Origin: Amphiscolops sp. MND2022
Lineage: Eukaryota
Assembly: GCA_964187785.1 (NCBI GenBank)
Contig: OZ076409.1
Coordinates: forward strand, 17,920,001-17,984,000
Direction: 5' to 3'
DNA length: 64,000 bases
Position numbers and translations under genes: made by a program. This document shows positions 6,798 to 64,000 of this stretch, piece by piece. The notes under the pieces are model-generated. The model was given only the letters and a program-made list of their open reading frames with translations, made no database searches and was not told where the DNA came from. The number at the start of each line of letters is the position of its first letter. Within the stretch, counting starts at the first letter, position 1.

Positions 6798-7220
6798 TGA
6801 GCTGTTGAAAAGTTGTAGTGTTGGTTCTTTTAGATATTTTATTACAGACATAAGAAGTCTGAGATTTAACAGCGAAGTCGTCTTCATTTCAAGTCAGTTT
6901 AGCTAGCTAGTCTTGAGTCTAAGTTCTCTGAGATCTCAGTTAGTTCCTTTGGAGAGGAAGACCGTTTGGTGGATTAGATTCTAATTTTGCTCCGAGTGGA
7001 TATATTCTATCAAACTAGGGTAGGTTTGATTCATTTACATTATTAAGAAATGACAGTAAAACAGGATGGATCTGAGAAGCTTGTTACAGGATATATTAGG
7101 TGAAGTTTCTCCAAAGATATTTAATTTTCAAATAGAATTACATCTACTAATTACTTGGGTTAGGAGTTCAGACTATTTCAGATTTATAGAATCTTTGAGG
7201 ACATGCATCATGGCATCACA
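6798..7220 (-). repeat. 3' LTR of giant gypsy copy 1
   Basis: Minus strand runs TGTGATGCC...ACAGCTCA and matches 25705-26125. Boundaries confirmed by the independent LTR at 48021-48433. Confidence 0.9.
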
Positions 7221-12130: not shown

Positions 12131-12437
12131 TTTTGTTTGTGATTAAAACATCAACAATTACAGTGATATCTATTCCAAGAGGCCTTAGCACTTTAAAGTA
12201 CTGTAAAATACACTAATACTGTAAAAAACACTAACGAATTGATTTGTCATTTTTAGAAGGAGAGTGTTTGAGAACTGTGATGCTTAGAGGCGTACTATTG
12301 ATTTGAGGAATATGAACCTCGACAAGAGATTCGAGAGAAGGAGGAGTAGCAATTGTTAGGAAATTTTTCAGAGATGAGAGTTTGAAGGAGTAGAGAAGCG
12401 TTCCTGAAGAGAGTTGGCAAGCAGACTGAGAGGGAGT

Positions 12438-15128: not shown

Positions 15129-16289
15129 TTGTGATGGTAGGTTGAGTAAGATCTCGTTCAAATTCAATATGTACTACTTCAAAAGGTGCAGGAGAAGTTT
15201 TGTGTTTATTTTTGAGACGTGAATAATCGGATGTGGATTTAAACCTTGAAATTTGACTTCGACTTCAAATTTAAGTTCTAATGAGAAGTCTGAAGACGTT
15301 TGAGTTCTGTTTCTTTTCTTTTTTGAGATAAGAGATCGCTGTTAGCAATGAAGCGTTCTGCAAGAATTAGAAATCGAGGGTCGTTTTGTCGGTCGTAAAT
15401 GGTTATTCCATCAACTCGAAGTGGATAGTCAGCAAAATTAGTAGTTGGAGGTCTAGAATGATCTGCAGTATCGTATTCAGGTAGTCTAATATGTGCAGGG
15501 ACAGGAGTAGGTACTATAACTTCTGAGAAAAGGTTTCCTGATTAAAATGCAGTCTGAGCATCAGAAGAGAGTAATGAAGCAGTTTCAAAACCAGAAGTAA
15601 AATAAGGAGAAGGGATAGGTTCTGAAGAATGTGTTTCAGAAGACAACGGTTGTGCGTGTTGTCGTACAAGTCGTAATACAGAATTGCTGGAAAGAGCAGA
15701 TAAATTGAGTGTTGAAGTATCTGTACTAAGTCTACGTGAAGGGAGGTCTCGAAGATTCTATCGATGTTGTGGAAGAAATAGTGAGCTTGTCGTTTCTTGT
15801 GATGGTGTGTATTCAGAGGTTTTGTCTAAAAGATTTGACTGTGATGTAGAAAGTTTTCTAAGGGGTTTGAGTGAAAGGTATAGGTTAGAAGAAGTAGTAG
15901 TGATTTCTGATGGTAGTTTCAGTGGAGGTAAACGTGTATATTCAGTATCAGGAATGTGTACAAGATTGAGCTGAGGTTGGGGTCTAACAGTTTTGATAGC
16001 TGTAGGGTGTTTGTAATTTACGTATTGTTCAAAAGTTTCAGGATTAGGTATATGTACTAAAGGAGTATTAATGGGAGATGGTTGAGTACGAGTAGTAATA
16101 GGGATTTCAGTTATAGGTGGTCTATGAAGAAAAGATGAGGAAGATGTTTCAGAAACGTATGATCTTGGTCGTTTAGAAGGAGTGACAGGAGTTACATTAC
16201 GAGTGTGAGTAGTGGTAGTTGTTGGGGATTCATTATTAGAGTTAATACTTGGAGCTGAGGGAGATGTATCAGAAGAAGAATCCAGGGTT
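15070..16289 (-). pseudogene. Orphan ORF between pol and env (PSAP motif), disrupted in this copy
   Basis: Homologous to the open frame 57868-59061. PSAP is encoded at 16250-16261. Confidence 0.65.
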
Positions 16290-16400
16290 CTGGAAAAAGT
16301 ATTTCAACAGGTTATCGTTGTGATAACTTGTTAGTGACTATCTTGTATTCAGCTTTTCAGTGAGCAGTTTTCAATGAGCCTGTGGGTTGAATGATGGAGA

Positions 16401-19400: not shown

Positions 19401-22400
19401 TAGAGCAACTCTGCCAGTAGAAGAAGGGATTTTATGAATAGCTGCAAATTTTGAATGAATTGGTTTAATTGTATTGTAACCAATTTCATGTCCAAGAAAT
19501 TTGACATTAAGGAGCATGAAAATTGATTTTTCAGGGGCTAGTTTAAGTTTTTTTTTGTACTGATAACGTGTAATTGTTCGATGAGTTGGAACATGTGTTC
19601 TTTAGAGTCAGATAAAAGTAAAATATCGTCAATATAGACAAGGGCAAAACCTTGTTCTATAAGAGTTTTAAAGAAGGTAGACATTTGTTTTGTAAAGAAC
19701 TTTGGGAGTCCTTTGAGACCATAAAACCTCATATGAAAGCAAAGGGTTTATCTCCTGAGGAGAAACTGTTAAGTTTAATAGTGTCTTCATCAAGGGGTGT
19801 ATCTGCATAGCCCTACATAAGATCAATTGCAGATTTGTACTTTTTGTTTGCTCGTGCTAATTGTGGAGCGAGAGGTTCAATAGGCCAAGATTCATCAGAT
19901 TGTTCTGTATTGGAGTTAAGATGTCGAGCATCTAATACACATTTTATAGTGTCTCCTTTGGGGATTATAATAAGAGGATTTAAATAAGTTGTACCATAAA
20001 CTGGTTTGTCTTGTGGAGAGGAACCGATTTGTTTTATAATGTTATATTTTTCTAGTTCTTTGAGAAGTGTGTTAAGTTTGTCTCTATAGTGAATAGGAAC
20101 TTTAGAAGGACGTTGTGTCATAAGTTGAGCATTGGGTTTAAGTCTAATACGAAAGGGAGTTGAGATTTTACCAACATCGTTTTTATGAATTGCATAACAT
20201 GTTTTATATTTGAGTAACATATTACAAAGGGTAATGTACTCAGTGTCAGTAAGGTCAGAAAATTGGAAAGTAAATTTGTTGATAAATTTTAGATTGTCAG
20301 AAGTATATGGTAAAGAAGGGAGAAGGTGTTTTTCAGAAGTGTGAGAAGTAAGTTGGACGTTGTATAAAGGTGAAGTTTGATTTAGTATATCAGAATTTGT
20401 CATATAAATTTGATGTAATGAAAATTGAGGAGGAGGAGTTGTAAAATCATCATAGTGTATAATATATTTGGTTTGTGGAACTGGTTCAATATATTTGGTT
20501 TGTGGAACTGGTTCAGTTATTTCGGGATGGTATGTATGAGTAATATTATGTATTAAAGTGTTAGTATCGTTGACTTGAAAGAATTTAGGTTTTTCATTTG
20601 TAATTGGAACATCGATATATCCAATATGTAATGGATAATGTGTTGCAGGTATTGTTGCAAGATGTTTGGAGGTTGCTGAATAATAATTGCACAAATGTCT
20701 GGTTTGTTATCTGTGAATACTTCAAAAAAATTGAAATTTGTACAAAACTTGGTAGCAAAATAGGTTTGTGGTACTGAAGGGAAGAAGTAGTTTTGTGGTG
20801 TAGTTGTAAAATGAAGATTATGATAATTTTTTATTGGAAAGTGTGCAATTTTAGAAGACTTGGGTTTTAGACGTATTTGAGTTTTTGAATTAATTCTGTA
20901 AATGTATGAAAACTATGGGTAGTCTTTAGGTAGGAGTGTTGTGAATTTTGCATAATTTGGGTGTGTTTTTGATTGGTATTTAAATTCTAGTGTAAAATCT
21001 TGTATGTTTATGTTCTGTATATTGTCTTCAAAGAAGGGTGTACCAAGGATATTGTTTTTGATATCAGCTACTGCAAAATGTACTGAAAAGTAACGCGAAT
21101 TATCGTCATTAGTTGTGTTTAAAATTATATTGGCATCATGTAATATAGGAACTTCGGTTTGGTTTGCAACATTCAATGTTTTTGAAGTGTTCGGGGTCCA
21201 ATGTCAAAAGTGAGATTTGGTCTGATATCTAAGAGTTTTGTAAGAGTTATGTATGTTGGGTAGTTTAACACAGAGATGGAAGCACCGCTATCTAAAAGGA
21301 ATGCAAATTCCAGTCTAGATGGGTTATCTCTTTGTGTTATAATTGATGGTGTATGAACATATAGAGTATAAAACCAACTTGTAGGTGTTACAGCATTTGC
21401 CATTGCTGTTGGGTGATACATGTGTACTTCAAATTTTATAGGGTCAGATTGGTCTTGTGGTTGTATCATATTAATTTTGTTTCTAGGATTGGAGTGTGAA
21501 CGGGATCTAGAAAATCTAGAATCTCTTGGTTTAGAATATATGAATCTATATCTATATGAATTTGTATATTTTGTAAAATTATTGTCTTTGGCATAGGAGC
21601 GTGATCGATCTATTTCTAGGGCGAGATTTGTGGCTATAACGAGATCTATACGAAGATCTGTATGGAGAGCGGTAAGACCGTGAATCGCGTTTGTAAGTAC
21701 CATATCGTGATCTAGAGTATTGTGGAGTGGTAGTACTTTTGTCATAGCTAAATCTATCTCTAGATGTAGAACGGTATCGACTTTGTGAATAGTTTTTGTT
21801 GTAAGAGTTGTTACGTGAGGTACTTCGACTTCTATATTGATTATCATAGTGTTTTGTTCTATCATTAGAAGGAGAGCGGAAGTACTGTACAAATGATTTT
21901 AAAGGACATTTTGATCGAGCATATGCATCGCGTTTGTCTTCATCATCTCGTTGTTTTCTGAAACAAGCAGAGATGGTGTGCTTCGTTCTGTGACAATATG
22001 AACAAAATTTTTTATATGCAGGTTTATTCTTGTTGTTTGGGTCTTTTGGTTGAGTAAACACAAATTGTTCTTGTGATGAAGATTCAAGAGTTTGTGTGTG
22101 TAATTGTTTCGTAATGTTATTGACTTCAAGTGCAAGATCATGTGTTCTAATTTTGTGATTTGCAATGTCTTCAGCATCAACAAGTTTTACTAATGTATGA
22201 AAGGGAATCGAAAGTTCTTAGACAGTAGAAGTGTGTTTTACTTGTCTTTTGTTTGCAAAGTCTTTGAGGTTTTTTGGAAGTCCTTTTGTAAAAATTTCAA
22301 TACATTTGAGGTTAATAGTGGATGCTTTCTCATTACACCAGCCTTTTTCAACCAACTGTTGAACTTTGAGTGCAAAGTGGCGTACTGTTTCATTATCCTT

Positions 22401-24621
22401 TTTGGATAGGTTAAGGGCTTCAACTTGAGCATAATAAGCGTTCTTTTGTGAAGAGAATTGTTTTTTGAAAGCTTGTACAAAAGCGTGCCAATCTTGTTTA
22501 TAAGTGTCATTTAAACGAATGTACCAACTGAGTGCTGTGCCTGTTAAAGAACATTGTATAAAAGGCACGTGACGGGCGTTCCAAAAATTATTTTCATGTT
22601 CTGATGAAGGTTGTAAACCTAAAGAAAGTGTAACACGTGCCTCAATATGTTGTAAGTATTCTTCAGGTGTATAATTATGATCTAAACCATCATAAGGTTT
22701 AATAGGTTCTGATATCGAAGTAGAAGAGTTGATATATGTTGGGTGTGAAATAGTATTGTGAGATATAGTAGATGGTGGTACTGTGTTGTATGTAGGGTTA
22801 TTCGAGGTATTGGTAAAGGAAGTGGTAGATGTGTTATGAAAGAGGGGGTTAGTTCTAATGGTTGTTGAAGGGGGATTTTGTATTTGAAAATGCGAGTTTT
22901 GTAATGTAGGTGTGATTGTATTAGACGTGTGTTGAGGAGGGAAAGTATTCAACGAATTGGGTCTGTTATTGTTTTCATCTGAGATTGTTGTGTATGACTT
23001 GAGTTTGTTCTTGTAAGGTTGTATGATAATGGATTAGTTAATATGGGTTGTAATGGAGGTCTAGAAAGATGTCTAGAAGTTGTGTAATCGAAAGGTGGAT
23101 TTGAATGAATAGTGTTAATGTTTAAACTAGTTTGTACAATTTGTACTGGACTACTTTGAGCTGGAGTATAAGTTGAAATTTGTATTCCAGGAGTTGATGG
23201 TGGAGTTGGTGTTTGAAAATGGACTGTATTATTGTGTTGTGTATAGTGTTGTGTATTTGAAGAGCCTTGTTGAGGAGAATTATGAGTGTGAATTTGAATT
23301 GAGAATTGAGGTGGAATAGAAGCTGGGTCATAATTTTGACGAGGTGATGCTTGATGCTTGTGTCTGAGATGGCTGCGTAGTATTAGTATGAGATGTGGAT
23401 AAAAGAGAGGTGTTATCTTGAGTTGTACTTAAAGTGTTGTCGTGGTTTTGGTTATTAGTTTCGTCTTGTGTGATTTTGTGGGAAGGAACTTGTATAAGAT
23501 TTGAATCGTTAGTTATTGTATGACTTTGTGTAGTTTGTACTGTTTCTTCAGAAAATTCTGATGCATTCTGTATTGTAGCAATTTCAGAAGGATTCAATTG
23601 TTGTATATCAGAAACTTGTAATAATTGTGGATATAGTGGGTTTAATTGGTGAGGTTCTGGATTTCGAAAAAGTTTAATGAAATCATCTTGCTCTGATTGT
23701 ACTGAATGTTGTCTATTATATTGAGTTACAACATTAGAGTTTGGTTCTTCTGGGAATGTTTCAGGGGAAATGTTAGATGTAATAAAAGGTCTGTTATCTG
23801 ATGTTTCAGAATGTTCAACTAAAAAGGTGTGATCTAGATTTATTTGTTCAAAATAAGTAGTACTAAATGAGGTAAGATACCTGTATTGTAACTGTCTATG
23901 TTCATTTTTTATCATGTATGGTAAGAGTTCTGTTTGTGTTAGTATTTAAGTAAAGTGAATGGGCGCTTGTTGATCTTGTTGTTCCCAAAACAGTTGATAG
24001 TTAAATCTGAAAAACTTTAATAAAAATCGAGAGAAAACTTTGACTTGAGGAATAGTGTCGTCCGTAAGGGTAATATTGTTACAGAATCTGTATTGAAAGT
24101 TTTTTACTCGTAAAATATTTTGTTGTAGCCAATAATGAGGGCTATCATGTCTCTGAATTCTTGTTTCAAGATAAGGGACCTCAAAATAATCAGATTTGTG
24201 TTTCAGATCTTCTAAGTGAGAAGGACGGTGAAGTGGTGTATCTTGGTTTTCATTGAGTTCAATAAGTTTTTGTATGTACGTGAGGAAAACATCTTGTATA
24301 GAAAGTGTAATATTTTGTGGATGGATTGTTCAATAGTATGTTCCAGTACTTATTCATTTAACTGGGTTAAAATATCTTGAAAAGGGTTTTGTGATGATGT
24401 TATTTCAAGTGTTTCATATCGAATGTTATAAAGATAAGAGTCACAATGTTCTCTTGCCAACGGAATAGTATGTATCGTATGGGGTTCTGTTTCAAATGGA
24501 AATGGATTTGTGTACTGAAAGATGATGTTGTTCAGAAAAGGTGTTCATCTTGTTGTTCATCTTGTATAAGAGACCGATTTTGTCTTTCCTCTGTAGATAA
24601 TACAAATGTGGGAGGAAGCTT
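16401..24621 (-). pseudogene. gag-pol polyprotein of giant gypsy copy 1 (many stops and frameshifts)
   Basis: Capsid-like PIKPYDGLD/LTGTALSWY, CCHC knuckle CSYCHRTKHTISAC, RS-rich tract, protease LLDSGAS, RT YIDD, RNase H VDAS, integrase MDTKG/DRGSE/NGLVE and GPY motif. Confidence 0.93.
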
Positions 24622-24636
24622 TATATATTGCTAAAT

Positions 24637-24870
24637 TCAGTTAGTATAATAAGATTGCCATAAAGGATAGATGTACTGGAAAAGAAGATATTTTGTATTA
24701 AATTGAGAGTTATATGGTAAGAGTTGGTCTATGAATACAACTTGTAAGAATATTGTAAGTACTGTACACAGGAAAAGAAGAAATGGGTTATGTATGTATT
24801 GTATAAGAGTATAAAAAGTATAATGAATATTGAGTAGTCCAAAAAGAGGTTGTATCAGACTTGTTAACAT
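24637..24870 (-). CDS. 77-aa hydrophobic upstream ORF of giant gypsy (intact)
   Basis: ATG-to-stop ORF with the same length and 64/77 identity to 49332-49565. Hydrophobic stretch FLLFLCTVLTIFLQVVFI. Confidence 0.55.
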   Translation of the reverse strand: MLTSLIQPLFGLLNIHYTFYTLIQYIHNPFLLFLCTVLTIFLQVVFIDQLLPYNSQFNTKYLLFQYIYPLWQSYYTN

Positions 24871-25018
24871 AGAAAGAAAAAGTTATACCTTGGAATTTTG
24901 GTATAAAAGATATTGAAAATCTGTCAAGAAAAAGTGCAAGACCGGCACCGAGTGCAACAAAGAACCAAAGGCAGACAATGAGCTTAGCTACATTATCTAC
25001 TGAAGGCGACATGTACAA
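24788..25018 (-). CDS. Small upstream ORF with a predicted TM segment, overlapping the 77-aa ORF
   Basis: MSPSVDNVAKLIVCLWFFVALGAGLALFL. The homologue at 49190-49312 has the same N-terminus but an earlier stop. Confidence 0.45.
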   Translation of the reverse strand: MYMSPSVDNVAKLIVCLWFFVALGAGLALFLDRFSISFIPKFQGITFSFYVNKSDTTSFWTTQYSLYFLYSYTIHT

Positions 25019-25684
25019 TAGAGTTCTGTTAAGAGTATGTCAAAAAGTTGTATAAAAAGTTTGGTATAAATGTGTGAAAAATTGAAAGTTATATAAAGTA
25101 TTATTTGATTTATTTGTTATATATATGGTTATTTGCTATGTATTTGGATCCGTAAACTGGTTTTGAAAGAGTTTGGGTGTTGTTTGTACTATATAAGTGA
25201 CAGGAAAGAGAGGTTCTAAAATAGTGTGGTGTAAAAGATATATGTTATATAGGTGTGCCAATTTTAAATTTGATCCAAGCGGCTAGAACCAAAGTATTTT
25301 ACTAGAAGGAATCGCTGGATAGCACTGTAGAAAGGCCAACACGTATCGCACGTCTGCGGTTGGAACGGAAGAATGAGAGAATGCCAACACGAATTCACTC
25401 AGAGTTGGTTGGAACGAAACATTTACTGACAGGAATTACGTTAAGAAACTCAGTCAGAACCAAGAAATGTAACTGACAGGAATTACGTGGAAGGACGTAG
25501 TCAGAACCATAGCAACACGAATCAATTTCTATTAGAAATTGTTTGCAACGTTTGAAGTTATTAACGGTAGGCAATATTGAGAGGTGGAGAAACTGTGTGT
25601 CGAACAAAGAGGTTTCTGATAAGTAAGTCGAGAAAAGGTGTACAAAAGTTGTAAAGTTGTGAAATGAATGGGAGAGAAAGAAGA

Positions 25685-25702
25685 ATTTTCTTGGTCGCAC
25701 CA
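25685..25702 (-). promoter_or_regulatory. Primer binding site of giant gypsy copy 1 (tRNA not assigned)
   Basis: TGGTGCGACCAAGAAAAT two bases after the LTR-terminal CA. Identical in copy 2. Confidence 0.8.
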
Positions 25703-25704
25703 AT

Positions 25705-26125
25705 TGAGCTGTTAAAAAGTTGTAGTGTTGTTTCTTTAGATATTTTATCACAGACATAAGAAGTCTCAAAATTTAACAGCGAAGTCGTCTTTATTTCAAG
25801 TCAGTTTAGCTAGCTAGTCTTGAGTCTAAGTTCTCTGAGATCTCAGTTAGTTCCTTTGGAGAGGAAGACCTTTTGGTGGATTAGATTCTAATTTTTCTCC
25901 GAGTGGATATATTCTATCAAACTAGAGTAGATTTCATTCATTTACATTAATAAGAAAAGACAGTAACAGGATGGATCTGAGAAGCTTGTTACAGGATATA
26001 TTAAGTGAAGTTTCTCCAAAGAGAATTAACTTTCAAATAGAATTACATTTACTAATTACTTGGGTTAGGAGTTCAGACTATTTCAGATTTATCGAATCTT
26101 TGAGGACATGCATCATGGCATCACA
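25705..26125 (-). repeat. 5' LTR of giant gypsy copy 1
   Basis: TG...CA termini, followed by the PBS, with an AATAAA-like signal near the 3' end. Matches 6798-7220. Confidence 0.9.
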
Positions 26126-32489: not shown

Positions 32490-32739
32490 CTACGAGAAAC
32501 AATATAATGTGGCATGATAACATGATTGTTTTTACATTGAACGAAGATTCGATCTAAACGCCGATGATTTACCCAGTATACTTGATGAACATAACGACTC
32601 AGAAACAAGAATGCATAGATGAGGAACGGTCGTATGTGCTGAAATTCAATCGATCGCTACCTATTACGTAATATAGCAATTCTCAAAGCTTTTTTTACAT
32701 TAATTGAAAAATTGGTCATCGTTTTTTCTTACAACATTC

Positions 32740-48020: not shown

Positions 48021-48433
48021 TGTGATGCCATGATGCATGTCCTCAAAGATTCTATAAATCTGAAATCCTCTGAACTCCTAACCAAAGTAATTAGTAAATG
48101 TAATCTCATTTGAAAGCTAATTATTCTAGAAGAAACTTCACTTAATATATCCTGTAACAATCTTCTTAGATTCATCCTGTTGCTGTCACAATATTAATTG
48201 ATGAAACCTACCCTAGTTAATAGAATATATCTACTCGGAGAAATTGAGAATTCATCCTGACGATCAGTCTTCTCTCCAGCACTTCAAGAACTGAGATCTC
48301 AGAAATAGATTGTACTTAGAACTAGCTAGCTACAAGGTATAAAGTAAGACGACCATGCTGTTAAAATCATAGACTTCTTATGTCAGTAATAAAACATCTA
48401 AAAGAAATAACACACACGCTTTTTTACAGCTCA
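48021..48433 (+). repeat. 5' LTR of giant gypsy copy 2
   Basis: TGTGATGCC...ACAGCTCA followed by AT and the PBS TGGTGCGACC. AATAAA at 48388. Clearly diverged internally from the copy 1 LTRs. Confidence 0.9.
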
Positions 48434-48435
48434 AT

Positions 48436-48453
48436 TGGTGCGACCAAGAAAAT
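48436..48453 (+). promoter_or_regulatory. Primer binding site of copy 2
   Basis: TGGTGCGACCAAGAAAAT, identical to copy 1. Confidence 0.8.
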
Positions 48454-49331: not shown

Positions 49332-49565
49332 ATGTTAACAAGTATAGTACTACCTCTTTTTGGACTGCTTAGTATTTACCACACCTTTTATACACTTATC
49401 CAATATATACAAAATCCATTTCTTCTTTTCATAAGTATAGTACTTACAATTTTCCTACAAGTTGTATTCATAGACCAAATCTTACCATATAATTCACAAT
49501 TCAATACAAAATATCTTCTTTTCCAATACATCTATCCTTTATTGCAAACTTATTATACTAACTAA
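49332..49565 (+). CDS. 77-aa hydrophobic upstream ORF (intact)
   Basis: Counterpart of 24637-24870 with the same start and stop and mostly conservative substitutions. Confidence 0.55.
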   Translation: MLTSIVLPLFGLLSIYHTFYTLIQYIQNPFLLFISIVLTIFLQVVFIDQILPYNSQFNTKYLLFQYIYPLLQTYYTN

Positions 49566-49580
49566 ACTTTACACCATATA

Positions 49581-52500
49581 ATGCTTCCTACTCCATTTAC
49601 ATTAACTACAGAAAAAAGACAAAATCGATCTCTCATACAAGATGTAACACCTTTTCTAAACAACATCATCTTTCAGTACACAAATCCACTTCCATTCGAA
49701 ACTGAACCCCATACAGTACATACTATTCCATTGGCACGAGAACATTGTGATTCTTATCTTTGTTACATTCGATATAAAACACTAGAAATAACATCATCAC
49801 AAACCCCTTTTCAAATTATTTTTAACCCAGTTAAAGGAATAAGTTCTGGTACATTTTATAGAGCCATTCACCCACAAAATATTACACTTTCTATACAAGA
49901 TGTTTTCAATACATACATGCTAAAATTTATTGAATTCAACGAAAACCAAGATACACCACTTTATCGTTCCTCTCACTTAGAAGAACTAAAACACAAATCT
50001 GAATTTTTCGAGGTCCCTGAACTTGACACAAGAATTCAAAGACATGATAATCCTCATTACTGGCTACAACAAGATATCTTACAGATAAAAAACTTTCAAT
50101 ACAGATTCTTCAATAACATTATTCTTACGGATGACACTATTCCCCAAGTCAAAATTTTTACCCATTTCCTATTAAAATTTTTCAAATTTAACTATCAACT
50201 ACTCTGGGAACAAAAAGATCAACAAGCCTACATTAACTTCCTCAAATATTAACACCTACAGAACTCTTACCATACATCATAGAGAATGAACATAAACATT
50301 TACAATACAGAGATCTTACATCACTTAATATTGCACATTTTGAACAAATAAACTTAGACCACAACTTTTAGTTGAAAATTCTGAAACATCAGATAACCGA
50401 CCTTTTACTACATCTGATACTTCTTTCGAAACAACTCCTGAAGCACAAACTTCAAATGTTGAACTTTTATACACTAGACAACATTCAGAACAATCTGAAC
50501 AAGAAGACTATCACTTTTCAAAATACAGAACCTCATCAAGAAGACCCACCATATCCACCATTATCACAAATATCCAATATACAACAAATGAATCCCTCTG
50601 AAACAGCTACAATTCAAAATACATCAGAATTTTCAGAAGAAACTGTACACAATACACAAAGTTTTACAATAACTGACGACACAAATCTTATACAAATTCC
50701 TACCCACACTATCACACAAAATGAATTTAATAACCAAAACCAAGACAACACTTTAAATACAAATCACGAAAATACCTTTTTTTTATCTACCACCCATACT
50801 AATATTACACAACCCTCTCAGACACAAGTATCACCTCGTCGAAATTATGATCCACCTTCTATTCCATCTCAATTCTCAACTCAGACTCATACCCATAATT
50901 CTCCTCAACAAAGCTCTTCAAAACAACATATTCCACAAAACACTAATACTGTACATTTTCAAACACCAACCCCACCATCACCTTCTGAAACACAAACTTC
51001 AACTTATACTCCAGCTCAAACTAACCCAGTACAAACTACACAACCTACCTTAAACATTAATACCATTCATTCCAACCCATCCTTTAATTACACCACTGCC
51101 AGAAAACTTTCTCGACCTCCATTACAAACTATATTAACTAATCCATTATCGTACAATCTTACAAGTACTAATCTAAGTAATACACGACCATCTCAGATAA
51201 CATACAACAGATCCAATTCATTAAATACTCTCTCTTCTCAACATACGTCTAATACAATCACACCTACACTGCAAACTTCTCAATTCCAAATACAAAATCC
51301 TCCTAAAACAACAATTAGAACCAACCCTCACTTCCACAACACCTCTACTACTTCCTTAACTAATATTTCAAATAATCCCACTAATAATACAGCACCACCA
51401 TCTACCATATCTCATAATACTATGTCACACTCAACATATATTAACTCTTCTACTTCTATATCAGAACCCATTAAACCTTTTGATGGACTAGATCATAATT
51501 ATACACCTGAAGAATATTTACAACATATTGAGGCACGTGTCACATTTTCCTTAGGTTTACAACCTACATCAGAACATGAATATAAAATTTGGCACGCTCC
51601 TCGCATGGCCTTCATACAATGCTCTTTAACAGGTACAGCACTTAGTTGGTACATTCGTTTAAATGACACCTATAAACACGATTGGCACGCTTTTGTACAA
51701 GCTTTCAAAAAACAATTTTCCTTACAAAGAATGCTCATTATGCTCAAGTTGAAGCCCTTAATTTAACCAAGAAAGATAATGAAACAGTACGTCATTTTGC
51801 ACTCAAAGTTCAACAGCTGGTTGAAAAAGGCTGGTGTAATGAGAATGCATCCACTATCAACCTTAAATGTAATGAAATCTTTACAAAAGGACTTCCAAAA
51901 AATCTTAAAGACTTTGCAAACAAAATACAAGTGTAACACACTTCCACAGTTTTAGAACCTTCGATTCCTTTTCATAGATTAGTAAAACTTGTTGACGCTG
52001 AAGATATTGCAAACGACAAAATCAGAACACATGATCTTGCACTTGAAATTAATAGTTTTACAAAACAATTGAACACTCAAACTCTTGACCCTTCATCTCA
52101 AGAACAACTTATGTTTACACAACCCAAAGATCCAAATAACAAAAATAAACCTGCATATAAGAAATATTGCTCATACTGTCATAGAACAAATCATTCATTT
52201 CTGCTTGTTTCAAAAAACAACGAGATGATGAAGACAAACGAGAAGCATATGCTCGATCTAAATCTCCACAAAAATCTTTTGTACAACACTTCCGTTCTCC
52301 CTCCAATGATAACACTATGATAATCGATACCGAAGTCGAAGTACCACACGAGACAACTCTTACAATAAAACTTATTCACAAAATCGATACCGTTCTACAT
52401 CTAGAGATAGAGATAGATTTAGTTATGACAAAAGTACTACTCCTCCATACTACTCTAGATCACGATATGATACATACAAACGTGATTCCCGGTCCTACCG

Positions 52501-55500
52501 TTCTCCCTACAGATCTTCATACAGATCCCCTTATCGACACAACTCTCGTCCTAGATACAGATCACGTTCCTATTCCAGAGACAACAAATTCACAAAATAT
52601 ACAAATTCTTACAGACCACCTTCAAGACCAAGAGATTCTCGATTTTCTAGATCTCGCTCATACTCCAATTCCAGAAACAAAACTAATATGGTACAACAAC
52701 AAGACCAATCTGACCCTATAAAATTTGAAGTACATATGTATCACCCAACAGCAGTGGCAAACGCTGTAACACCCACAAGTTGGTTTTATACATTATATGT
52801 TCATACACCATCAAGTATAGTACAAAGTGATAACCCATCTAGATTGGAAATTGCAATCCTTCTAGATAGCGGTGCTTCCATTTCTGTATTAAATTACCCA
52901 ACATACAAAACCCTTACGGAACTCTTAGATATCAGATCAAATCACACTTCTGATGTTGGACCAACTCGAAAATCCAAAACATTAACCGTTGCAAACCAAA
53001 CTGAAGTTCCAATTTAACACTATGCAAATATAATTTTAAACACTACTATTGATGAAAACTCCCGTTACTTTTCAGTACCTTTTGCAGTAGCTGATATCAA
53101 ATACAACATTCTTGGCACACCATTCTTTGAAGACAATATACAAAACATAAACATACAAGACTTTACACTGGAATTCAAATACCATTCAAAAACACACCCA
53201 AATTATGCAAAGTTCACAACACTCCTATCTAAAGATTTTCCATATTTCTCATACATCTACAGAATTAACTCAAAAACTCAAATACGTCTAAAACCCAAGT
53301 CTTCAAAAATTGCACACTTTCCAATAAAAAATTATCTTAACCTCCATTTTACAACTACACCACAAAACTACATCTTCCTTTCAGTACCTCATACCTATTT
53401 TGCTACCAAATTTCGTACAAATTTCAATTTTTTGGAAGTATTCACTGATGACAAACCAGATATTTGTGCAACTATCATCCAAAACACCTCAAAACATGTT
53501 GCAACACTACCCACAGGACTTATTGGATATATTGAAGTTCCAATTACTATTGAAAAACCCAAATTCTTTCAAGTTAATGATATTAACACTTTAATACATA
53601 ATGTTACTTATACCTATCATTCTGAAATGACTGAACCACTTCCACAAACTAACTATATTGTACAACATGATGATCCTACAACCCCTCCTCCTCAATTTTC
53701 CTTACATCAACTTTATATGACAAACGATGACATTCCAAGTCAAACTTCTCCTTTATATAACGTTCAGCCTACTTCTCATACTTCTGAAAAACGCATTTTT
53801 CCTTCCCTACCATACACTTCTGACAATCTGAAATTCATTATTAAATTTAACTTCCAATTTTCTGACCTTACAGACACCGAATACATTACTCTTTGCAGTA
53901 AGTTACTCAAGTATAAAACATGTTATGCAACTCATAAAAACGATGTTGGAAAAATTTCAACACCCTTCCGTATTCGACTTAAACCAAATGCTCAACTTAT
54001 GACACAACGTCCTTCTAAAGTCCCAATTCACTACCGAGACAAACTCAATGTACTTCTCAAAGAACTCGAAAAATATAACTTTATTAAACAAATTGGTTCC
54101 TCTCCACAAGACAAACCTGTTTATGGCACAACTTATTTAAACCCCTTCATTATAATCCCCAAGGGAGATACCATAAAATGTGTATTAGACGCTCGACATC
54201 TTAACTCCAATACAGAACAATCCGATGAATCTTGGCCTATTGAATCTCTCGCTCCACAATTAGCACGCGCAAATAAAAACTACAAATCTGCTATTGACCT
54301 TATGTATGCCTATGCACATACACCTCTTGATGAAGACACTATTAAACTTACCAGTTTCTCCTCAGGAGATAAACTTTTCGCTTTCATCCGAGGCTTTTAT
54401 GGTCTCAAAGGACTCCCAAACTTCTTTACAAAACAAATGTCTACCTTCTTTAAAACTCGTATACAACAAGGTTTTGCTCTTGTCTACATTGACGATATAT
54501 TACTTTTATCTGACTCTAAAGAACACATGTTCCAACTCATAGAACAATTACATATTATCAGTACAAAAACACAATCTTAAACTAGCCCCTGAAAAATCCT
54601 TTTTCATGCTTCTTAAAGTCAAATTTCTTGGACATGAAATTGGTTACAATACAATTAAACCAATTCATTCGAAAATTGCAGCTATCCATAAAATTCCTTC
54701 TCCAACTGGCAAAGTTGCCCTAATGAGTTTCATTGGCGCACTCAATTTTTACACCAAATTTATTGAAAAACTACATATTAACCTCAAACCATTTTACAAT
54801 CTTTTACATGAGAACACTCCTTGGAAATGGACTGACGAACACGACAGTCTTTTCCAAAAACTTAAAATGTCTCTCACTTCTGAAACAGAACTTACAATAC
54901 CAAATACAAAACATCCATTTTTCATTACAGTTGACGCTTCCCTTATTGGATTAGGCGCTGTCTTATTCCAATTAAATGAACTAAACAAAATGAAAGTTAT
55001 ATCTTACAACTCTCGTATACTCAACCCTCAAGAACAAAAACTCTCCACACTTGATAGAGAGCTCCTTGGTATAGTACATGCTCTCCAAATCTATGAATTT
55101 CTTATCATTGGTTCTCCTCATCCAATACACATTTTTACTGATCACAAACCTTTATTACATTGTTTTACAAAGAAAGGTAACCTTAGTCCTCGATTTTACA
55201 GAGCTCAAATGCAAATAACAAAATTCTCAAAACTCAAAATAATTCACACCCCTGGAAAAAATCTCTCTGTTGCTGACATGTTAAGTCGCTCTTTTACAAA
55301 AACTGAACTACAACTCAACCAATTAAAACATAAACAGCTTCCACCACAAATTGATTTTGCACTTCTACAAAATAACACTCTTAAACCTGTACATTACTTA
55401 ATTAAACATGAAGAAACTTTACCTCGCCAAAAAAATGACTCTCACCACGTCCTTGCTGATTATGGTACAGACCAATTCTCTATTCGTATCAATGATAAAA

Positions 55501-57736
55501 GAAATGACATTGTTGACAAACCGTTACAATCTTTCTCATTCAAATCTATAACTCCTTTTCAAACCAAAATCAAAATACCTATAAAAAGAACAATAAAACC
55601 CTTCATCAACAATCTCTCTTACTCAATGATACTGACGTTACAAGCGATGACGAAGATCATATATATACCAGAATTCCAAAACCTGACTCCTCTTTCTTAC
55701 ATGACACAACATTACAAACAGAAAACTATTCTACTCTTAACAAACTAACCCCAAAAACCTCACAAAAATCTGTTTCCGCAATAAATGTACAATCAAATTT
55801 ACCATCTCTCACACATTCTCCACAGATTATACCTTTTTATGATACATCAATTTTCAAGTACAAAAACTATTTTCAAGGTTTCTTCCTCCCAGATGACTAC
55901 TCATTAGACATAACAACACTTCAACAACAACAATCCCAAGACCCGGTTCTCAGAACTATTCATTCTTGGATTGTAAAAAATGAAAAACCTGAATCTCTAA
56001 CACCATTTATTACTGGCACTCTTTTTCTACATGCTTATTACAAACGATTTTCACAACTTTTTATAGATGACTCCACAAATCTTAGTAGCCTTTATACTAA
56101 ACACCCTACTACTCAAAACCAATCTTTTACTCCAGATTTTGTACACGCTACTATTCGAATCTGTCTTCCATTCCGACTATTCAAAACTGTTTTTAACAAA
56201 CTTCATGAACACTCTCATACAGGTATCAAATTTACCTACAATACATTTGCACAGTATTACTACATTCCATTTGTTGAAAAATGGCTTTCCATGAAAATTC
56301 AAACTGCTCCTACAAAATCCTTCTCAGAACACGCTCCATCTTTCAATTACCGTATTTCAATGGACACTAAAGGACCTATTAATCCTCCTTCCCACAACAA
56401 ATCATATATACATGTTATAATCGATGCTTTCAGTCACTTTGTTGTTACAGTACCCATTAAATCAAACAACGCAAAGACTGCTATCAAAACTCTTCTACAC
56501 CATTGGATTATTAAATTTGGACCACCCATATATCTTGTTACTGATCGTGGATCAGAATGTGTCAATAAAGAAATGGCACAACTCCGTACACTAATGGGAA
56601 TTCGTCATTCTCCTAGAACAGCTTACTCTCCTTGGACAAATGGCCTTGTCGAAGTACAAATTAGAAATCTTGGTACACATCTACGAATGTTCCCACATGA
56701 CAGACCTAAAGATTGGGCATTCCAAGTCCATATGTACGCTTATGCACATAATTCACAACCACTTTCAGAACTCAATATTTCTCCTCATGAAATTGTTTTT
56801 TACACCAGACCCAGAATACCCCTTACTTTTGATCTAAATCTTAATAGAGACACCTCTAAAACATGTATTTCACGTTATTGCTCCCAACTTCCAGAACATT
56901 CTCACTATGATAAATCAGATCTCAACCCATTTTTTAATCGAACTCTTTCAAAACCCATTCCACAATGGTTTCTCGCTGTAGAAACTGCTATGTTACAAAT
57001 TGATTCTACAGTATATGAAAACACTTTACGAAAAATCAATTCACACGCATACATTACAAAAACCTATCACGAAGGTAAACCACTTCCTACTGGCACCTTT
57101 GTTTTAAAACGAAATTTTACGCAAGTACATTTTTCTGACAAACAAAAACCCCTTCGGATTGGACCATACAAAATTATTGATAGACTATCAGATGTTACAT
57201 ATGAACTACTTGCACAAGACGGCTCTACAATACATGTTCATAGAAATCATTTAATTCCATATTATCCAAAAGAACAACTCTTATATCCACATTTGCGTAG
57301 TTTCATGCGCTTTTCAGACACAACTCAATTCCAAATTCCACAACCTACCAAATATGCAAACAGTGATTCTTCCCCATTCAACTCAGACGAATCTTTATCA
57401 GATGAAGATTCTCAAACATTCATGACACCATCCACAACAGATAATTCGTCTCAAACATTTGTAACACCAACATCACTTAGTACGTCCAATCAAAATACAC
57501 CATCTACACCATCCAATGACAAGTCTTTAACGTCCTCAACCAATGACAACTCCTTATATAGACATATTATTAACACCCCTCACACTAATATCCCTAGTGA
57601 CAGATCAAGACACTCTTCTAATACCCAAACAACTTCACTTCCTCCTCTAATTGACAGAACTACTAAAACTACTTATAAACTCCGACAACAACCCAAATTA
57701 GATTATAGACTTTTTATTACACCCTCAAAACTGTAA
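49581..57736 (+). pseudogene. gag-pol polyprotein of copy 2 (reconstructs to about 2700 codons, disrupted)
   Basis: ATG at 49581, capsid-like domain, CCHC knuckle, RS tract, LLDSGAS, YIDD, VDAS, integrase core and RIGPYKI. Lesions checked (for example near 50240 vs 23950) differ between the copies, which implies one ancestral frame. Confidence 0.93.
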
Positions 57737-57846: not shown

Positions 57847-59061
57847 CTGGATTCTTCCTCTGAATAATCTCCATCAGCTCCAAGTATTCCTTCTACTCCT
57901 GAATCTTCAGTATCAAACACTACAAACTCTAGTAATGTAACTCCTACTACTCCTTCTAAAAGACCAAGATCATACGTTTCTGAAACAACTTCTTCCTCAC
58001 TCCTTCATAGACCACCTATAACTGAAATACCTATAAACACTCGTACTCAACAAACCGCTATTAATGCTCCTATAGTACACATACCAAACCCAGAAAGTGT
58101 TGAACAATACGTAAACTACAAACATCCTACAGCCATCAAAACTGTTAGACTACAACCTCAACTTAATCTTGTACAAATCCCTGATACTGAATATACAAAA
58201 TTACCTTCATTGAAATTACCATCAGAACTTAGTACTACTTCTTCAAAACTTTATCCACCATTAAAACCTCTCCGAAAACCTTCTACATCACTCTCAAATC
58301 TCTTAGACAATACTTCAGAATTCGCTCCATCACAAGACACAAGTTCACTTTTTGTACCTCAACATAGATATAATCTTCGCGACCTCCCTTCACGTAGACT
58401 CAGTACAGACACTTCAACACTCAACTTTTCCGCTCTTTCTAGCAACTCTGCACTACGATTTCTACGACAACACGCTCAACCATTGTCCTCTGACACACAC
58501 TCTTCAGAACTCTTTCAATCTCCTTATTTTACTTCTGGTTTTGACACCGCTTCATTACTTTTTTCTAATGCCCAGACTGCGTTTTTATCAGGAGACCTTT
58601 TGTCACAAGTAGTAATCCCTACTCCTGTTCTTGCACATATTAGACTACCCGAATACTATACTGCAGAACATTCTAGTCCTCCAAATCCTAATTTTGCTGA
58701 TTATCCACTTCGAGTTGACGGAATAACAATCTACGACCCACAAAACGACCATCGATTTCCAATTCTTGCAGAACGTTTCATTAATAACAACGACCTCTTA
58801 TCTCACAAACGCAACGAAACAGAATTAAAACGCCTTCAGACACCCAATCTAGAACTTAAATTTGAAGTTAAAGTCGAATTTCAAGGATTAATTCCACACC
58901 CAATATTTCACAATTCTAAAATAGAACATAAAATCTCTCCTGCTCCTTTTGAAGTAGTACATATTGAATTTGAACGCGATCTTAATATACCTACTATCAC
59001 ATATGGCAGAATCGTCTTCTGTAACCCATATTCAGGTCTCAAATATACAACATCTTTTTAA
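57847..59061 (+). CDS. Orphan ORF of about 400 codons between pol and env with no in-frame ATG and a PSAP motif
   Basis: Frame open from 57868 to 59061 (read manually upstream of the listed TTG at 58210), with one stop at 57865. PSAP at 57871-57882. Overlaps the env start. Confidence 0.65.
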
Positions 59062-61666
59062 ACTCTACACAACCTTTTACATAACAAATCTGATATTCTA
59101 TTTACATTTATTTACCTTCACCTTTTCAATACCCATAACACCCTCTGACACAGAGAACTATCTTCCATCGGATGATCCAAATATTACAAATCTCATGGTT
59201 TCTCATTATGACTGTGCAAAACAGCATAATTTGAGACAATCTAACTTACTTAATGTAAAACAATGCACTGAAGCTCCTTCTGACATTAAACATGCAAGTG
59301 TTAAAGCCCGTGTATATGTCCGAGCAGAAGCTAAACGCATCAAAGCTTTTAAATGTGTTGCTTATGCAAAGAAAGAAAGGAAAATATGCTTTCAAGGTTC
59401 CGTAAAATACCGTCGTGTTGATAGAACGGTATGGAATCATAATACATTACCGCTTCCTGTTACTCTTGATCCATTAGAATGTAAAAACATTATAGGACAT
59501 TTAAATGGTACAAATGATAAAATATTGAACAACCTCCACTACAATAAAACTTTCACACTTTTAGAAGACCATTATTTTCAAGAACGATTGGAACAATATC
59601 AAACTCCTTTCACTGTATTCCAATTAAACAAAGTGTACACAGGTACATTTACATTTATGCCTGCTGATAAAAACTGGATATATGACCCTACTCGAAACCC
59701 TTATCTTAATTGTCCTGCTCATCATCAATTCCAAGTCAACCTAGTTAGTTGGCGATTAGAAATTTCTGATAATAGATCGACATACATTACCCTGCTATTT
59801 TGCAGATGGTTTTTATAAACTCACAACGAAAACCCCTTTTACTATTGTTTGGTTCAATGATGACTTTTGCCTAATTTGCACATTACAAGACTTCATTGGT
59901 CGTATGACAAAAATTGAAGATAGATACTGGATTGAAACAGACTTTTTTGTACATTCTCCACACTCAATAAAACCCAAAACAACTTCTTGTATCAAAGGTA
60001 CAGAACATCCATATGTTTATGCTCCTCATACACAACATCCAAATAACCCAAGTCTTTCAAGATTTGAAGTTTTTCCTACGGCACAAACTTTTTGTGGTAA
60101 ACCAGACCCTCTTTATTCTACACAATAATCAGACCTTTTTGTTACATACACTGAAAGTTTCAATATGCATACAGGACAACCCAACCCTCATTCTATGATT
60201 GATGAATATATTTCTGGTAAAACAGTATTGGACACTTCAAATAACAAATTTATATTTCCTGCATTAAATGTTTCAAACAACTTTGCTAACATTGACTATG
60301 ACGCACATATAAACACCAAAATAGATTACACTATTAACCATGTTTTCAGATCAATGACAGTACAAGAACTAAATACTCTTCATACAATATGTGAATTAGA
60401 ACGAAACCAACTTCTTACAATACTCGCAATGTCAGTACAAAATCCTAAACTTGCTGGTTTTCTTTTAACCGGTAATAGAAGTAATTTCTTGTACGTTGAA
60501 GGCTTACCCGCCTGGCTCTATGACTGCCCTCATTTTTTATCCTTTATATAAAGCTGATAGATGCTTTGACCGTATACCTATCCATTTTAGAGATCCCTTA
60601 ATGTACGTTGATCCAATTACAAGACGAACTTATGACTATGCTACACCAATTACATGTGATAATAATCCACGTAACATTATTGAACTATATCCTGATTCCG
60701 ATGATCAAGATTTTTACATTCTTGGACCTGAACCTATTAAACACAATCCTCCACTAATGTTTACACCTTCACAAATCAAAACTACAATACGCCCTAACAC
60801 TTTTACAGCTCAAGATGCTGGTATATATTCTAATGCAGAACTCGACCAATTTTGGAATCGTATTTTATTTTCCAAACATTCTGATTCTACACTTCAATTA
60901 CTAGGCAAAGCTCTTAGCTATTCTTTCATTTCATCTATTACTCCTAATTATGATGCAGATTCCCCTCAAGATTCTGGTAATTCTATAATACATTTTGTAT
61001 AGGACTACATGATAAACTCTTGAATTTAACTCCTCTTTTTACACCTACATGGTTTTCAGATGCTTTTATTGCACTTTTTGGATATCCTTGTTATATTCTC
61101 ACACATTGTGGTATATACTTTTCTACATTCCTTTTTGTACAAGCTACTCTTACACTCATTGTCAAACTTTACAAAACAATATCTATTAAATATAATCTAA
61201 AAAATAATATTATTTTATTTAGCTCTATCGCACATGGTTTTTTTAATGTTCTTACAGCACGAATGGTCAATGACCTCAATGAGACTCAAAACAAAAAACC
61301 CAAAAGTACACTTATAAAAGCCAAATCCTTAGATAATTTTATTGACACTTCAACAAATTTAATTAATCACTCTACTGATGTTACTTCCCCTCCACCTTCC
61401 TATACTAAACGTCCTAACAAAATTCAATTTCCTAAATTTAACTTGTTTCCGAAACGACACCACAATTCTCACCAAAAAACTGCTTCACTTCCTTTCTCTC
61501 CTGTTCAACATCCTCCACTTCCTAATTATACTCATAAAAACTTTCATCCAAATGACAATCTAACTACTCAACATGACACTTTAACAATTCTGTCACCTCT
61601 ACTACGGATACACCAATTAAAATCTATTCACGGATAAACTATCCTTTTCCTCCTCCATCTTCTTGA
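59003..61666 (+). pseudogene. env: Env-like class III fusogen-type glycoprotein, first tandem copy (disrupted)
   Basis: ATG at 59003, signal-like hydrophobic segment, YDC, CELER..QNP, CFDRIPI..YVDPITR..ITC, TM segment at about 61050-61165 and PPSY in the tail. 38-bp deletion near 59770 and a stop near 60126. Confidence 0.82.
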
Positions 61667-61695
61667 ACACTCTCTCAGTTTTGTGCAAGCTCTCT

Positions 61696-64000
61696 TATAC
61701 AACATCTTTTTAAACTCTACACAACCTTTTACATTACAAATCTGATATTCTATTTACATTTATTTACCTTCACCTTTTCAATACCCATAACACCCTCTGA
61801 CACAGAGAACTATCTTCCATCGGATGATCCAAATATTACAAATCTCATGGTTTCTCATTATGACTGTGCAAAACAGCATAATTTGAGACAATCTAACTTA
61901 CTTAATGTAAAACAATGCACTGAAGCTCCTTCTGACATTACACATGCAAGTGTTAAAGCCCGTGTATATGTCCGAGCAAAAGCTAAACGCATCAAAGCTT
62001 TTAAATGTGTTGCTTATGCAAAGAAAGAAAGGAAAATATGCTTTCAAGGTTCCGTAAGATACCGTCGTGTTGATAGAACGGTATGGAATCATAATACATT
62101 ACCGCTTCCTGTTACTCTTGATCCATTAGAATGTAAAAACATTATAGGACATTTAAATGGTACAAATGATAAAATATTGAACAACCTCCACTACAATAAA
62201 ACTTTCACACTTTTAGAAGACCATTATTTTCAAGAACGATTAGAACAATATCAAACTCCTTTCACTGTATTCCAATTAAACAAAATGTACACAGGTACAT
62301 TTACATTTATGCCTGCTGATAAAAACTGGATATATGACCCTACTCGAAACCCTTATCTTAACTGTCCTGCTCATCATCAATTCGAAGTCAACCTAGTTAG
62401 TTGGCGATTAGAAATTTCTGAAGTCGAACTTACGTATGATGACACATCCAATGACATGATAATAGATCGACATACATTACCCTGCTATTTTGCAGATGGT
62501 TTTTGTAAACTCACAACGAAAACCCCTTCGGTTCAATGATGACTATTTCCTAATTTGCACATTACAAGACTTCATTGGTCGTATGACAAAAATTGAAGAT
62601 AGATACTGGATTGAAACAGACTTTTTTGTACATTCTCCACACTCAATAAAACCCAAAACAACTTTTTGTATCAAAGGTACAGAACATCCATATGTTTATG
62701 CTCCTCATACACAACATCCAAATAACCCAAGTCTTTCAAGATTTGAAGTTTTTCCTACGGCACAAACTTTTTGTGGTAAACCAGACCCTCTTTATTCTAC
62801 ACAATATTCAGACCTTTTTGTTACATACACTGAAAGTTTCAATATGCATACAGGACAACCCAACCCTCATTCTATGATTGATGAATATATTTCTGGTAAA
62901 ACAGTATTGGACACTTCAAATAACAAATTTATATTTCCTGCATTAAATGTTTCAAACAACTTTGCTAACATTGACTATGACGCACATATAAACACCAAAA
63001 TAGATTACACTATTAACCATGTTTTCAGATCAATGACAGTACAAGAACTAAATACACTTCATACAATATGTGAATTAGAACGAAACCAACTTCTTACAAT
63101 ACTCGCAATGTCAGTACAAAATCCTCAACTTGCTGGTTTTCTTTTAACCGGTAATAGAAGTAATTTCTTGTACGTTGAAGGCTTACAAACCTGGCTCTAT
63201 GACTGCCCTCATTTTTTATCTCCTTTATATAAAGCTGATAGATGCTTTGACCGTATACCTATCCTTTTTAGAGATCCCTTAGTGTACGTTGATCCAATTA
63301 CAAGACAAACTTATGACTATGCTACAACAATTACATGTGATAATAATCAACGTAACATTATTGAACTATATCCTGATTCCGATGATCAAGATTTTTACAT
63401 TCTTGGACCTGAACCTATTAAACACAAACCTCCACTAATGTTTACACCAAAACTGAATCAAAACTACAATACGCCCTAACACTTTTACAGCTCAAGATGC
63501 TGGTATAAATTCTAATGCAGAACTCGACCAATTTTGGAATCGTATTTTATTTTCCAAACATTCTGATTCTACACTTCAATTACTAGGCAAAGCTCTTAGC
63601 TATTCTTTAATTTCATCTAATACTCCTAATTATGATGCAGATTCCCCTCAAGATTCTGGTAAACCTTATAATACATTACGTATAGGACTACATGATAAAC
63701 TCTTGAATTTAACTCCTCTTTTTACACCTACATGGTTTTCAGATGCTCTTATTGCACTTTTTGGATATCCTTGTTATATTCTCACACATTGTGGTATATA
63801 CTTTTCTACATTCCTTTTTGTACAAGCTACTCTTACACTCATTGTCAAACTTTACAAAACAATATCCATTAAATATAATCCAAAAAAATAATATTATTTT
63901 ATTTAGCTCTATCGCACATGGTTTTTTTAATGTTCTTACAGCACGAATGGTCAATGACCTCAATGAGACTCAAAACAAAAAACCCAAAAGTACACTTTTA
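61696..64000 (+). pseudogene. env: Tandem duplicate of env lacking the start codon (truncated by the window edge)
   Basis: 61696 onward repeats 59044 onward. It carries its own frameshifts near 62528 and 63450. Confidence 0.88.

Follow-up and report, generated by a model that had tools for sequence, protein, structure and literature searches.

Within the 64,000-nucleotide stretch of Amphiscolops sp. MND2022 contig OZ076409.1 that was analysed here (the window), an env-like gene is located at 59003-61666 on the forward strand, with an ATG at 59003 and a stop codon at 61664-61666. The questions raised by this locus are to which element the gene belongs, what kind of glycoprotein it encoded and how such a protein would be expressed. 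In all likelihood, it is the decayed env of an 18-kb Ty3/gypsy element, the sisters of which encode a predicted class III fusogen that is likely leaky-scanned together with a CUG-started protein.

An env of about 890 codons had been proposed at this position in the initial annotation. The gene does span the interval, but it is split over five ORF pieces and is not contained in one frame. When compared with an unbroken natural copy from the same genome (L006; 90.5% identical), frameshifts were located near 59767, 60540, 60984 and 61581 and a stop at 60126. The annotated features, namely a signal-like start, the YDC motif (HYDC in this copy), cysteines, sequons and a C-terminal hydrophobic anchor, are all present. 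The motifs of the gB-like segment quoted in the initial annotation also exist, but they do not all come from copy 1 or from one frame: copy 1 has QNPKLAG, QNPQLAG belongs to copy 2, and CFDRIPI lies in a different frame. All three env copies proposed for the window were found and all are broken, copy 2 being 90.3% and that of element B 84.5% identical to the natural copy. Beyond the window, copy 2 leads into an ORF-Y remnant and then into the 3′ LTR. Copy 1 gave weak or clear matches with four of its five pieces, three of these matches being to the Pfam family PF24664 (E 0.008, 2e-4 and 1e-10), and a piece of copy 2 matched the same family at E 7e-14. Because of these matches, that of the unbroken copies (E 8e-24) and the cysteines conserved in relatives, the env-like match at the locus is, as judged from sequence, not due to chance.

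Table 1. Features of elements A and B and of their env copies in the window.
Feature	Position	Strand	Remarks
5′ LTR of element A	48021..48433	+	TG...CA ends; target-site duplication TATG in front
Primer-binding-site-like TGGTGCGACCA	48436..48446	+	common to the 5′ ends read in S1, S2 and S3
Small hydrophobic ORF	49332..49565	+	directly 5′ of gag; 77 aa here
gag-pol remnant	49581..57736	+	gag, CCHC knuckle, RS-rich tract, protease, RT, RNase H, integrase; broken
ORF-X	57847..59061	+	AUG-less; opens with CTG in A-n-n-CTG-GAT; early stop in this copy
env copy 1	59003..61666	+	predicted class III, gB/chuvirus-G type; four frameshifts, one stop
env copy 2, tandem duplicate	61696..64000, continues past window end	+	96% to copy 1; broken; without first codons
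Element B, older copy of the same family as A	6798..26125	-	83% to A; target-site duplication ATAA
env of element B	12438..15128	-	several frameshifts and stops

The partner LTR of element A lies 4.3-4.7 kb beyond the window end, and the two LTRs are identical at 404 of 413 positions. Those of element B, at 25705-26125 and 6798-7220, are identical at 401 of 420. ORF-X of element A overlaps the start of env, and the CTG-GAT at the start of ORF-X was found in both elements. The small hydrophobic ORF has 78-79 aa in unbroken S1, S2 and S3 copies. The domains of pol follow the order protease, RT, RNase H, integrase (gag-RT-RH-IN by Pfam), and its best solved relative is Ty3 Gag-Pol, at E 8e-49 against 8e-18 for the foamy-type. 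LTRs with TG...CA ends, a primer site and a short target duplication are present, as in Ty3/gypsy elements. By these features the backbone is that of a Ty3/gypsy element, and the gypsy backbone claimed for env in the initial annotation is borne out by the order of pol and its closeness to Ty3 Gag-Pol. A BEL/Pao element with chuvirus G, or a Tas-type element, was rejected, as pol is gypsy-type.

To describe the family, copies were sought in the same genome; 8,414 candidates were obtained, 125 were scored and 30 loci were returned. An unbroken env frame of 908-927 codons is present in 15 of these 30 loci. Four whole natural copies of the subfamily S1 measure 18,041-18,108 bp, with 420-bp LTRs that are 98.9-99.8% alike and with 4-bp target duplications; gag-pol forms a single frame (2731 aa), after which come ORF-X, the 901-aa env, ORF-Y and the short ORF-Z. 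Three further subfamilies were traced via env homologues and ten more regions were read. Between representatives of the four sister subfamilies env is 51-82% and gag-pol 53-76% identical, and gag-pol, ORF-X, env and ORF-Y are present in all four. Whole copies with both LTRs are 17.7-18.8 kb long, LTR pairs of unbroken copies are 98.9-100% identical, and the gap between pol and env is 1,265-1,691 nt. Exact motif matches, which count matches and not whole copies, number 512 for S1 and 985 for S4. The family is long, young and very abundant, and carries conserved accessory ORFs. The dN/dS values between S1 and S2 were 0.18 for ORF-X, 0.14 for ORF-Y and 0.12 for env; between S3 and S3b they were 0.10, 0.07 and 0.08 for ORF-X, ORF-Y and env, respectively. 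The value for gag-pol, 0.13, is similar. For distant pairs, with values up to 0.54, saturation is nearly reached. The ORF-X and ORF-Y frames stay open at 31-44% identity between distant subfamilies. These comparisons indicate that both ORFs are under purifying selection.

The env protein was analysed on unbroken natural copies, which score 79-96 bits on PF24664 Monjiviricetes_fusion (E 8e-24; cut-off 27 bits). In the L006 protein, residues 27-45 and 715-735 are hydrophobic, seven sequons precede the anchor and the cytoplasmic tail is about 165 aa long. The ectodomain contains 14 cysteines; at each of these columns 18-22 distant relatives (24-33% identical) have a residue, and at least 18 of them have conserved the cysteine. 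The relatives number 2053 proteins at E≤0.001. At the level of sequence a type I topology is predicted, with conserved cysteines for putative disulfides. No furin-type R-x-K/R-R site is found in L006 env. An F-type (class I) env was rejected on this ground and on the class III matches of the model.

The ectodomain of the natural unbroken copy was modelled with AlphaFold2 from a 61-sequence alignment. The model (mean pLDDT 75) has long strands and a 45-residue central helix. With Foldseek, the PDB matches listed were all herpesvirus gB (best E 1.5e-13, TM 0.25-0.29). Against BFVD, chu-/xinmo-type G came first (best E 1.5e-26, TM 0.36-0.44, 12-15% identity) and gB appeared from rank 26. With VIA-align against 48,161 chains, gB took ranks 1-5 (Z 8.7, rmsd 13.4, 419 aligned), domain IV giving Z 6.4 and rmsd 3.7 over 156 aligned; Chandipura (vesiculovirus) G followed gB, and rabies G and Bourbon GP lay lower, among unrelated helices. 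Against class III structures the model reaches low TM-scores (0.25-0.44) at a high rmsd; thus, the match to class III holds by domains and not by whole shape. Among solved chains, neither the sequence nor a profile of env found a significant match. Where distant relatives have an aromatic W-x-C-G loop, the aligned loop of this env is more polar and more basic. Three structure searches of one model, together with Pfam, firmly support the prediction of a class III fold of gB/chuvirus G type for the ectodomain, as the initial annotation had supposed; the AlphaFold and Foldseek comparison that it had suggested placed gB and chu-/xinmo-type G on top, and not class I or II proteins. Env of this fold would be expected to mediate membrane fusion.

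ORF-X has no in-frame ATG in any of nine frames of 375-488 codons. In all nine the first near-cognate codon is a CTG that has A at position -3 and is followed by GAT. The sequence A-n-n-CTG-GAT stands at the start of ORF-X in 13 of 14 fetched copies, the exception being a broken S4 copy, and for S4 the CTG start context is present in 97 of the first 100 listed among 985 matches. CTG is otherwise a rare codon, with a share of 0.6-2.9% of the leucine codons in gag-pol and env. Among 59 leucine columns conserved in the four subfamilies none is CTG throughout, and two have any common codon. A-n-n-CTGGAT occurs once or twice per 18 kb, one occurrence always being at the ORF-X start (5/5). Counted from the CTG, ORF-X is 410-446 codons long; an in-frame stop lies 6-8 codons 5′ of the CTG in S1, S2 and S3b. 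The CTG of S3/S3b is seven codons upstream of the position aligned with the CTG of S1, S2 and S4.

Out-of-frame ATGs after the CTG were also counted. The five representatives have 3, 4, 1, 0 and 2, against codon-shuffle means of 6.4, 8.1, 7.6, 6.0 and 7.3 (P = 0.09, 0.06, 0.003, <0.001 and 0.014, respectively), the counts of 3 and 4 including the ATG of env itself. In 22 control stretches of gag-pol, env and ORF-Y, P was never below 0.39, and 12 gag-pol control stretches have 2-9 Met per 400 codons. The thinning of ATGs by itself is weak in S1 and S2 (P 0.09 and 0.06), and the subfamilies, being kin, are not independent. Both ATGs remaining in S1 open frames of only one and two codons. Readthrough or frameshifting from pol into ORF-X was rejected owing to intervening stops and a variable spacer (80-351 nt between pol and ORF-X in unbroken copies), and ORF-X as a part of env was rejected since in every subfamily env opens with an ATG of its own and a signal-like segment. 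ORF-X probably starts at the conserved CUG. A conserved CUG in strong context with thinned AUGs behind it is likely to be the signature of a non-AUG start with leaky scanning to env; the rarity of the codon and the thinning of AUGs up to env point to a CUG-started gene and env on one RNA.

The ORF-X protein has no membrane segment. Its first part is rich in Ser, Thr and Pro and disordered, and a conserved domain of ~130 aa forms the C-terminus. An [LI]YPxL motif is present in 5/5 representatives (each in 2-3% of shuffles; a bare YPxL comes up in 12-18%), and a PSAP motif near the start in 3/5, being absent from S3/S3b. These are late-domain-like motifs, of the kind that recruits ESCRT. In the three frames read, gag is without YPxL or PSAP; one LYPHL is found in the integrase tail of S1 and S2. 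Distant env relatives have similar motifs in the env tail (9/20 and 6/20). It is conceivable, if doubtful, that ORF-X helps particles to bud via its YPxL and PSAP motifs. Searches of ORF-X and ORF-Y against Pfam, PDB profiles and the Atlas gave no usable match. ORF-X has 697 homologues, and the best 120 listed are all at least 39% identical, resembling copies of this family. An ORF-Y model from a 4-sequence alignment reached pLDDT 33.

The origin and the role of env could be different from those given above. Had this gypsy lineage captured a chuvirus-like glycoprotein independently and recently, this would account for the top structural matches in BFVD being chu-/xinmo-type G rather than gB and for the Monjiviricetes_fusion family of env, and in a published pol tree the elements with env fall into several lineages (Chary & Hayashi, eLife 2026, PMC13524379). 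However, the viral matches are just 12-15% identical, as against the broad family of 24-33% relatives, and chuvirus-like G next to gypsy pol is already present in 114 elements (PMC13524379). Env has moreover diverged along with pol over the four subfamilies, which excludes a recent capture; this exclusion does not cover an old separate one. Capture is on the whole quite improbable, and as the new event proposed in the initial annotation it has to be given up, for gB-type env on Ty3/gypsy has been published as a widespread class, argued to be ancient (PMC13524379). Pattern scans of metagenome and viral contigs returned no env relatives, and none of 10 distant relatives received a name from a cluster look-up. 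Env might also be kept for a role other than fusion (receptor blocking, host use), the element spreading only inside cells. The polar nature of the predicted fusion loop and the lack of a furin-type site could be attributed to such a role, although a furin site is not always kept in HSV/gB-type env (PMC13524379). Conservation of all 14 ectodomain cysteines and of the anchor, selection on env equal to that on pol, and the retention of env within young multi-copy elements make it highly unlikely.

With respect to ORF-X, its AUG could come from a spliced 5′ exon and env could have its own RNA, the CUG being incidental or a DNA/RNA signal, for example an internal promoter. Spliced env RNA and internal env promoters are both documented in Tor elements (PMC4402516), and the CTG is not in a single aligned column across subfamilies. 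Against such an exon, an in-frame stop precedes the CTG by only 6-8 codons in S1, S2 and S3b, and no invariant AG is found near the ORF-X start. The thinning of AUGs over 1.2-1.35 kb and the even length of ORF-X from the CTG would also be left unexplained, and a spliced AUG is considered rather unlikely. Also weighed was a viral origin of ORF-X, in which a negative-strand RNA virus would have supplied a matrix-like protein and G as a module of two genes. ORF-X lies directly 5′ of a Monjiviricetes-type G and combines a disordered start, bearing PSAP and YPxL, with the conserved C-terminal domain, a position and layout that presumably resemble those of matrix genes of negative-strand RNA viruses. 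This origin gained no support from Pfam, PDB profiles or the Atlas, and the best 120 listed of the ORF-X homologues look like copies of this family; it appears very improbable.

Env-carrying Ty3/gypsy elements with F-type or HSV/gB-type env occur across animals (of the 1,512 elements tabulated, 221 are entered as ENV_HSV), and the 114 elements mentioned above were recovered with chuvirus-like BEL/Pao glycoprotein baits; an ancient origin was argued for the HSV/gB-type errantiviruses (PMC13524379). The present element, a Ty3/gypsy with gag, pol and gB-type env, belongs under this operational term of Chary & Hayashi. Like these errantiviruses it has Ty3/gypsy pol, LTRs, the order gag-pol-env and young multi-copy insertions, and an env predicted here to have a signal peptide, class III ectodomain and anchor. 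It is unlike them in length, 17.7-18.8 kb against 9.3-13.0 kb in the 16 elements with LTR places among the first 30 of the 221 ENV_HSV rows. A gB-type env on Ty3/gypsy is already known, and the env described here is one more example. The published screen was prefiltered for pol-env gaps of at most 1,000 nt and regions of at most 10 kb, with manual extension for some groups (PMC13524379). The gap here is coding and, at 1.3-1.7 kb, exceeds this prefilter, so that such elements could escape the screen. Long errantiviruses with accessory genes may have been overlooked as a group by gap- and length-filtered screens. Extra ORFs and a CUG start have no mention in the main text of PMC13524379, and acoel names are absent from its accessible text and supplements. 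In the present assembly, of 1.07 Gb, the mitochondrial COX1 is read with table 5 (TGA=W, AGR=S, ATA=M), which points to an invertebrate host outside the tunicates, cnidarians, ctenophores, flatworms and echinoderms. No report of this architecture was found in the open-access literature; long elements may be present in other supplement rows or in the figures of PMC13524379. What seems to be new, from the sequences compared, is the pair of conserved accessory ORFs, ORF-X and ORF-Y, and the likely CUG-started gene on an RNA shared with env.

Comparison with other systems places the element further. Env resembles chuvirus and xinmovirus glycoproteins in belonging to PF24664 above the cut-off and in its best predicted-structure matches, and is unlike them in its low identity and long cytoplasmic tail. 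The mosquito BEL/Pao elements with chuvirus-like G (Dezordi 2020, via PMC13524379) differ in backbone, which is gypsy here. With herpesvirus gB, the best solved-structure match, the env model shares the domain order and the long central helix; identity is about 11%, no gH/gL-like partner was recognised in the element, and env is known here as a monomer model. The Oikopleura Tor elements are likewise invertebrate and gypsy-type with env as a separate ORF, expressed there from a subgenomic RNA (PMC4402516), whereas ORF-X, ORF-Y and a CUG start are not described for Tor in the available part of that paper. A non-AUG start with leaky scanning is used by rice tungro bacilliform virus ORF I, panicoviruses and MLV glyco-Gag (PMC3542737). 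As in these viruses, the near-cognate start of ORF-X stands in strong context (A at -3, G at +4), ahead of a gene with an AUG and of a long stretch to be scanned; unlike them, ORF-X lies in a separate frame upstream of env in an LTR retrotransposon, the stretch to be scanned would be about 1.2-1.35 kb, and its start is deduced from sequence. Large LTR elements with extra ORFs, either between pol and env or 3′ of env, include Burro, Ogre and rotifer elements, and like these the present family is larger than the usual 10 kb (PMC6431247). Burro has an F-type env within a polyprotein and Ogre owes its length to LTRs; a gB-type env with a CUG-started ORF is in no element described in the accessible part of PMC6431247.

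The following scheme is proposed. The element has LTRs, 4-bp target duplications, a gag-pol frame, ORF-X, env and ORF-Y, in four subfamilies with many near-identical copies. Its env is predicted to have a class III fold, a signal peptide and a single anchor. The open frames of ORF-X and ORF-Y are maintained, with dN/dS well under 1. ORF-X would, with good probability, be translated from the conserved CUG. A subgenomic RNA, spliced or made from an internal promoter as in Tor, would carry ORF-X and env, most ribosomes passing the CUG; the balance is slightly in favour of this step. The YPxL and PSAP motifs of ORF-X might aid budding, a tentative assignment, and env would likely fuse virus-like particles with other host cells. 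Soma-to-germline infection may follow, by analogy with Drosophila errantiviruses. A bolder version, which is unlikely to hold as a whole, would be a complex invertebrate retrovirus lineage of 18 kb, with thousands of copies and accessory genes, in which a CUG-started, ESCRT-recruiting matrix-like protein and a class III fusogen share one RNA as an M-G-like module, perhaps derived from a negative-strand RNA virus. Env expression, budding and cell entry of gB-type errantiviruses are stated to be unknown (PMC13524379); here, where unbroken copies are young and very numerous, four subfamilies have diverged and the predictions (CUG start, shared RNA, late-domain motifs) are sharply defined, RNA and ribosome data would suffice to test these questions.

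Sequencing-run contigs were also aligned to the window. No splice-type joint is present in them, although contigs of this kind cannot show expression. A single contig, from run X2, covers integrase through 3′ LTR, with ORF-X and env between them.

Late-domain-like motifs, for which we take [LFI]YPx[LIV], P[ST]AP and PPxY, were located in the distant env relatives and in the family of the window element. Among the distant relatives (P0058, P0080, P0089, P0097, P0112 and others), the last 90 aa of the env tail carry [LFI]YPx[LIV] in 9 of 20 proteins and P[ST]AP in 6 of 20. Motifs of the YPx[LIV]/PSAP type are found in ORF-X in the family of the window element, and its env tail has PPxY (5/5).

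The env gene of element A is tandemly duplicated. The first codons are missing from the second copy, and the two copies are broken at different places. In the gag protein, a long Arg-Ser-rich tract comes after the single CCHC knuckle (window 51937-53017; about 875-1050 in protein P0209). Two 10-base probes from the primer-site-like sequence (window 48436-48446) were unmatched in the primer columns of the 1,512-element table of Chary & Hayashi (PMC13524379).

ORF-Y is without a membrane segment and has no known homologue. The length of the third ORF, which comes after it, varies: 150 aa for S1/S2, about 300 aa for S3, and 122 aa for the S4 copy that was examined. A 54-aa ORF is present in S4, farther upstream of gag than the hydrophobic ORF of the other three subfamilies.

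Features of the window and of fetched DNA regions (L038, L044).
Feature	Location	Strand	Remarks
Decayed BEL/Pao-like element	window 1752-5511	minus	DUF5641, E 1e-18 (Pfam)
Exon-like ORFs	window 867-1283, 29634-30218, 30194-30625, 31025-31354, 32101-32553	minus	by eye
Small hydrophobic ORF	window 49332-49565; L038:6543-6779		78-79 aa; end abuts gag start; S1, S2, S3
env tandem duplication, element A	window 59044-64000 (continuing to 64384 with L031 appended)		2.65 kb, 96% alike
ORF-Y	L044:289-1629		430-495 aa; all four subfamilies
Third ORF, 3' of ORF-Y	L044:2049-2498		differs between subfamilies

About 1.4 kb outside the 5' LTR of element B recurs within the element, directly before its 3' LTR, at 95-96% identity (window 7220-8610 and 26125-27423). 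This repeat could possibly be attributed to recombination or to a haplotype merge in the assembly. On visual inspection, the exon-like ORFs resemble fibronectin type III repeats encoded by a host gene, and a Pfam scan of one piece gave no match; element B would then be situated between exon-like ORFs of this putative gene. The DUF5641-bearing remnant presumably belongs to the BEL/Pao class.

Two S3-type copies (regions L064-L066 and L067-L069) sit within tandem-repeat arrays. The mitochondrial contig of the assembly (G000:C1929, L102-L104) is 14.7 kb long, and its COX1 decodes with table 5.
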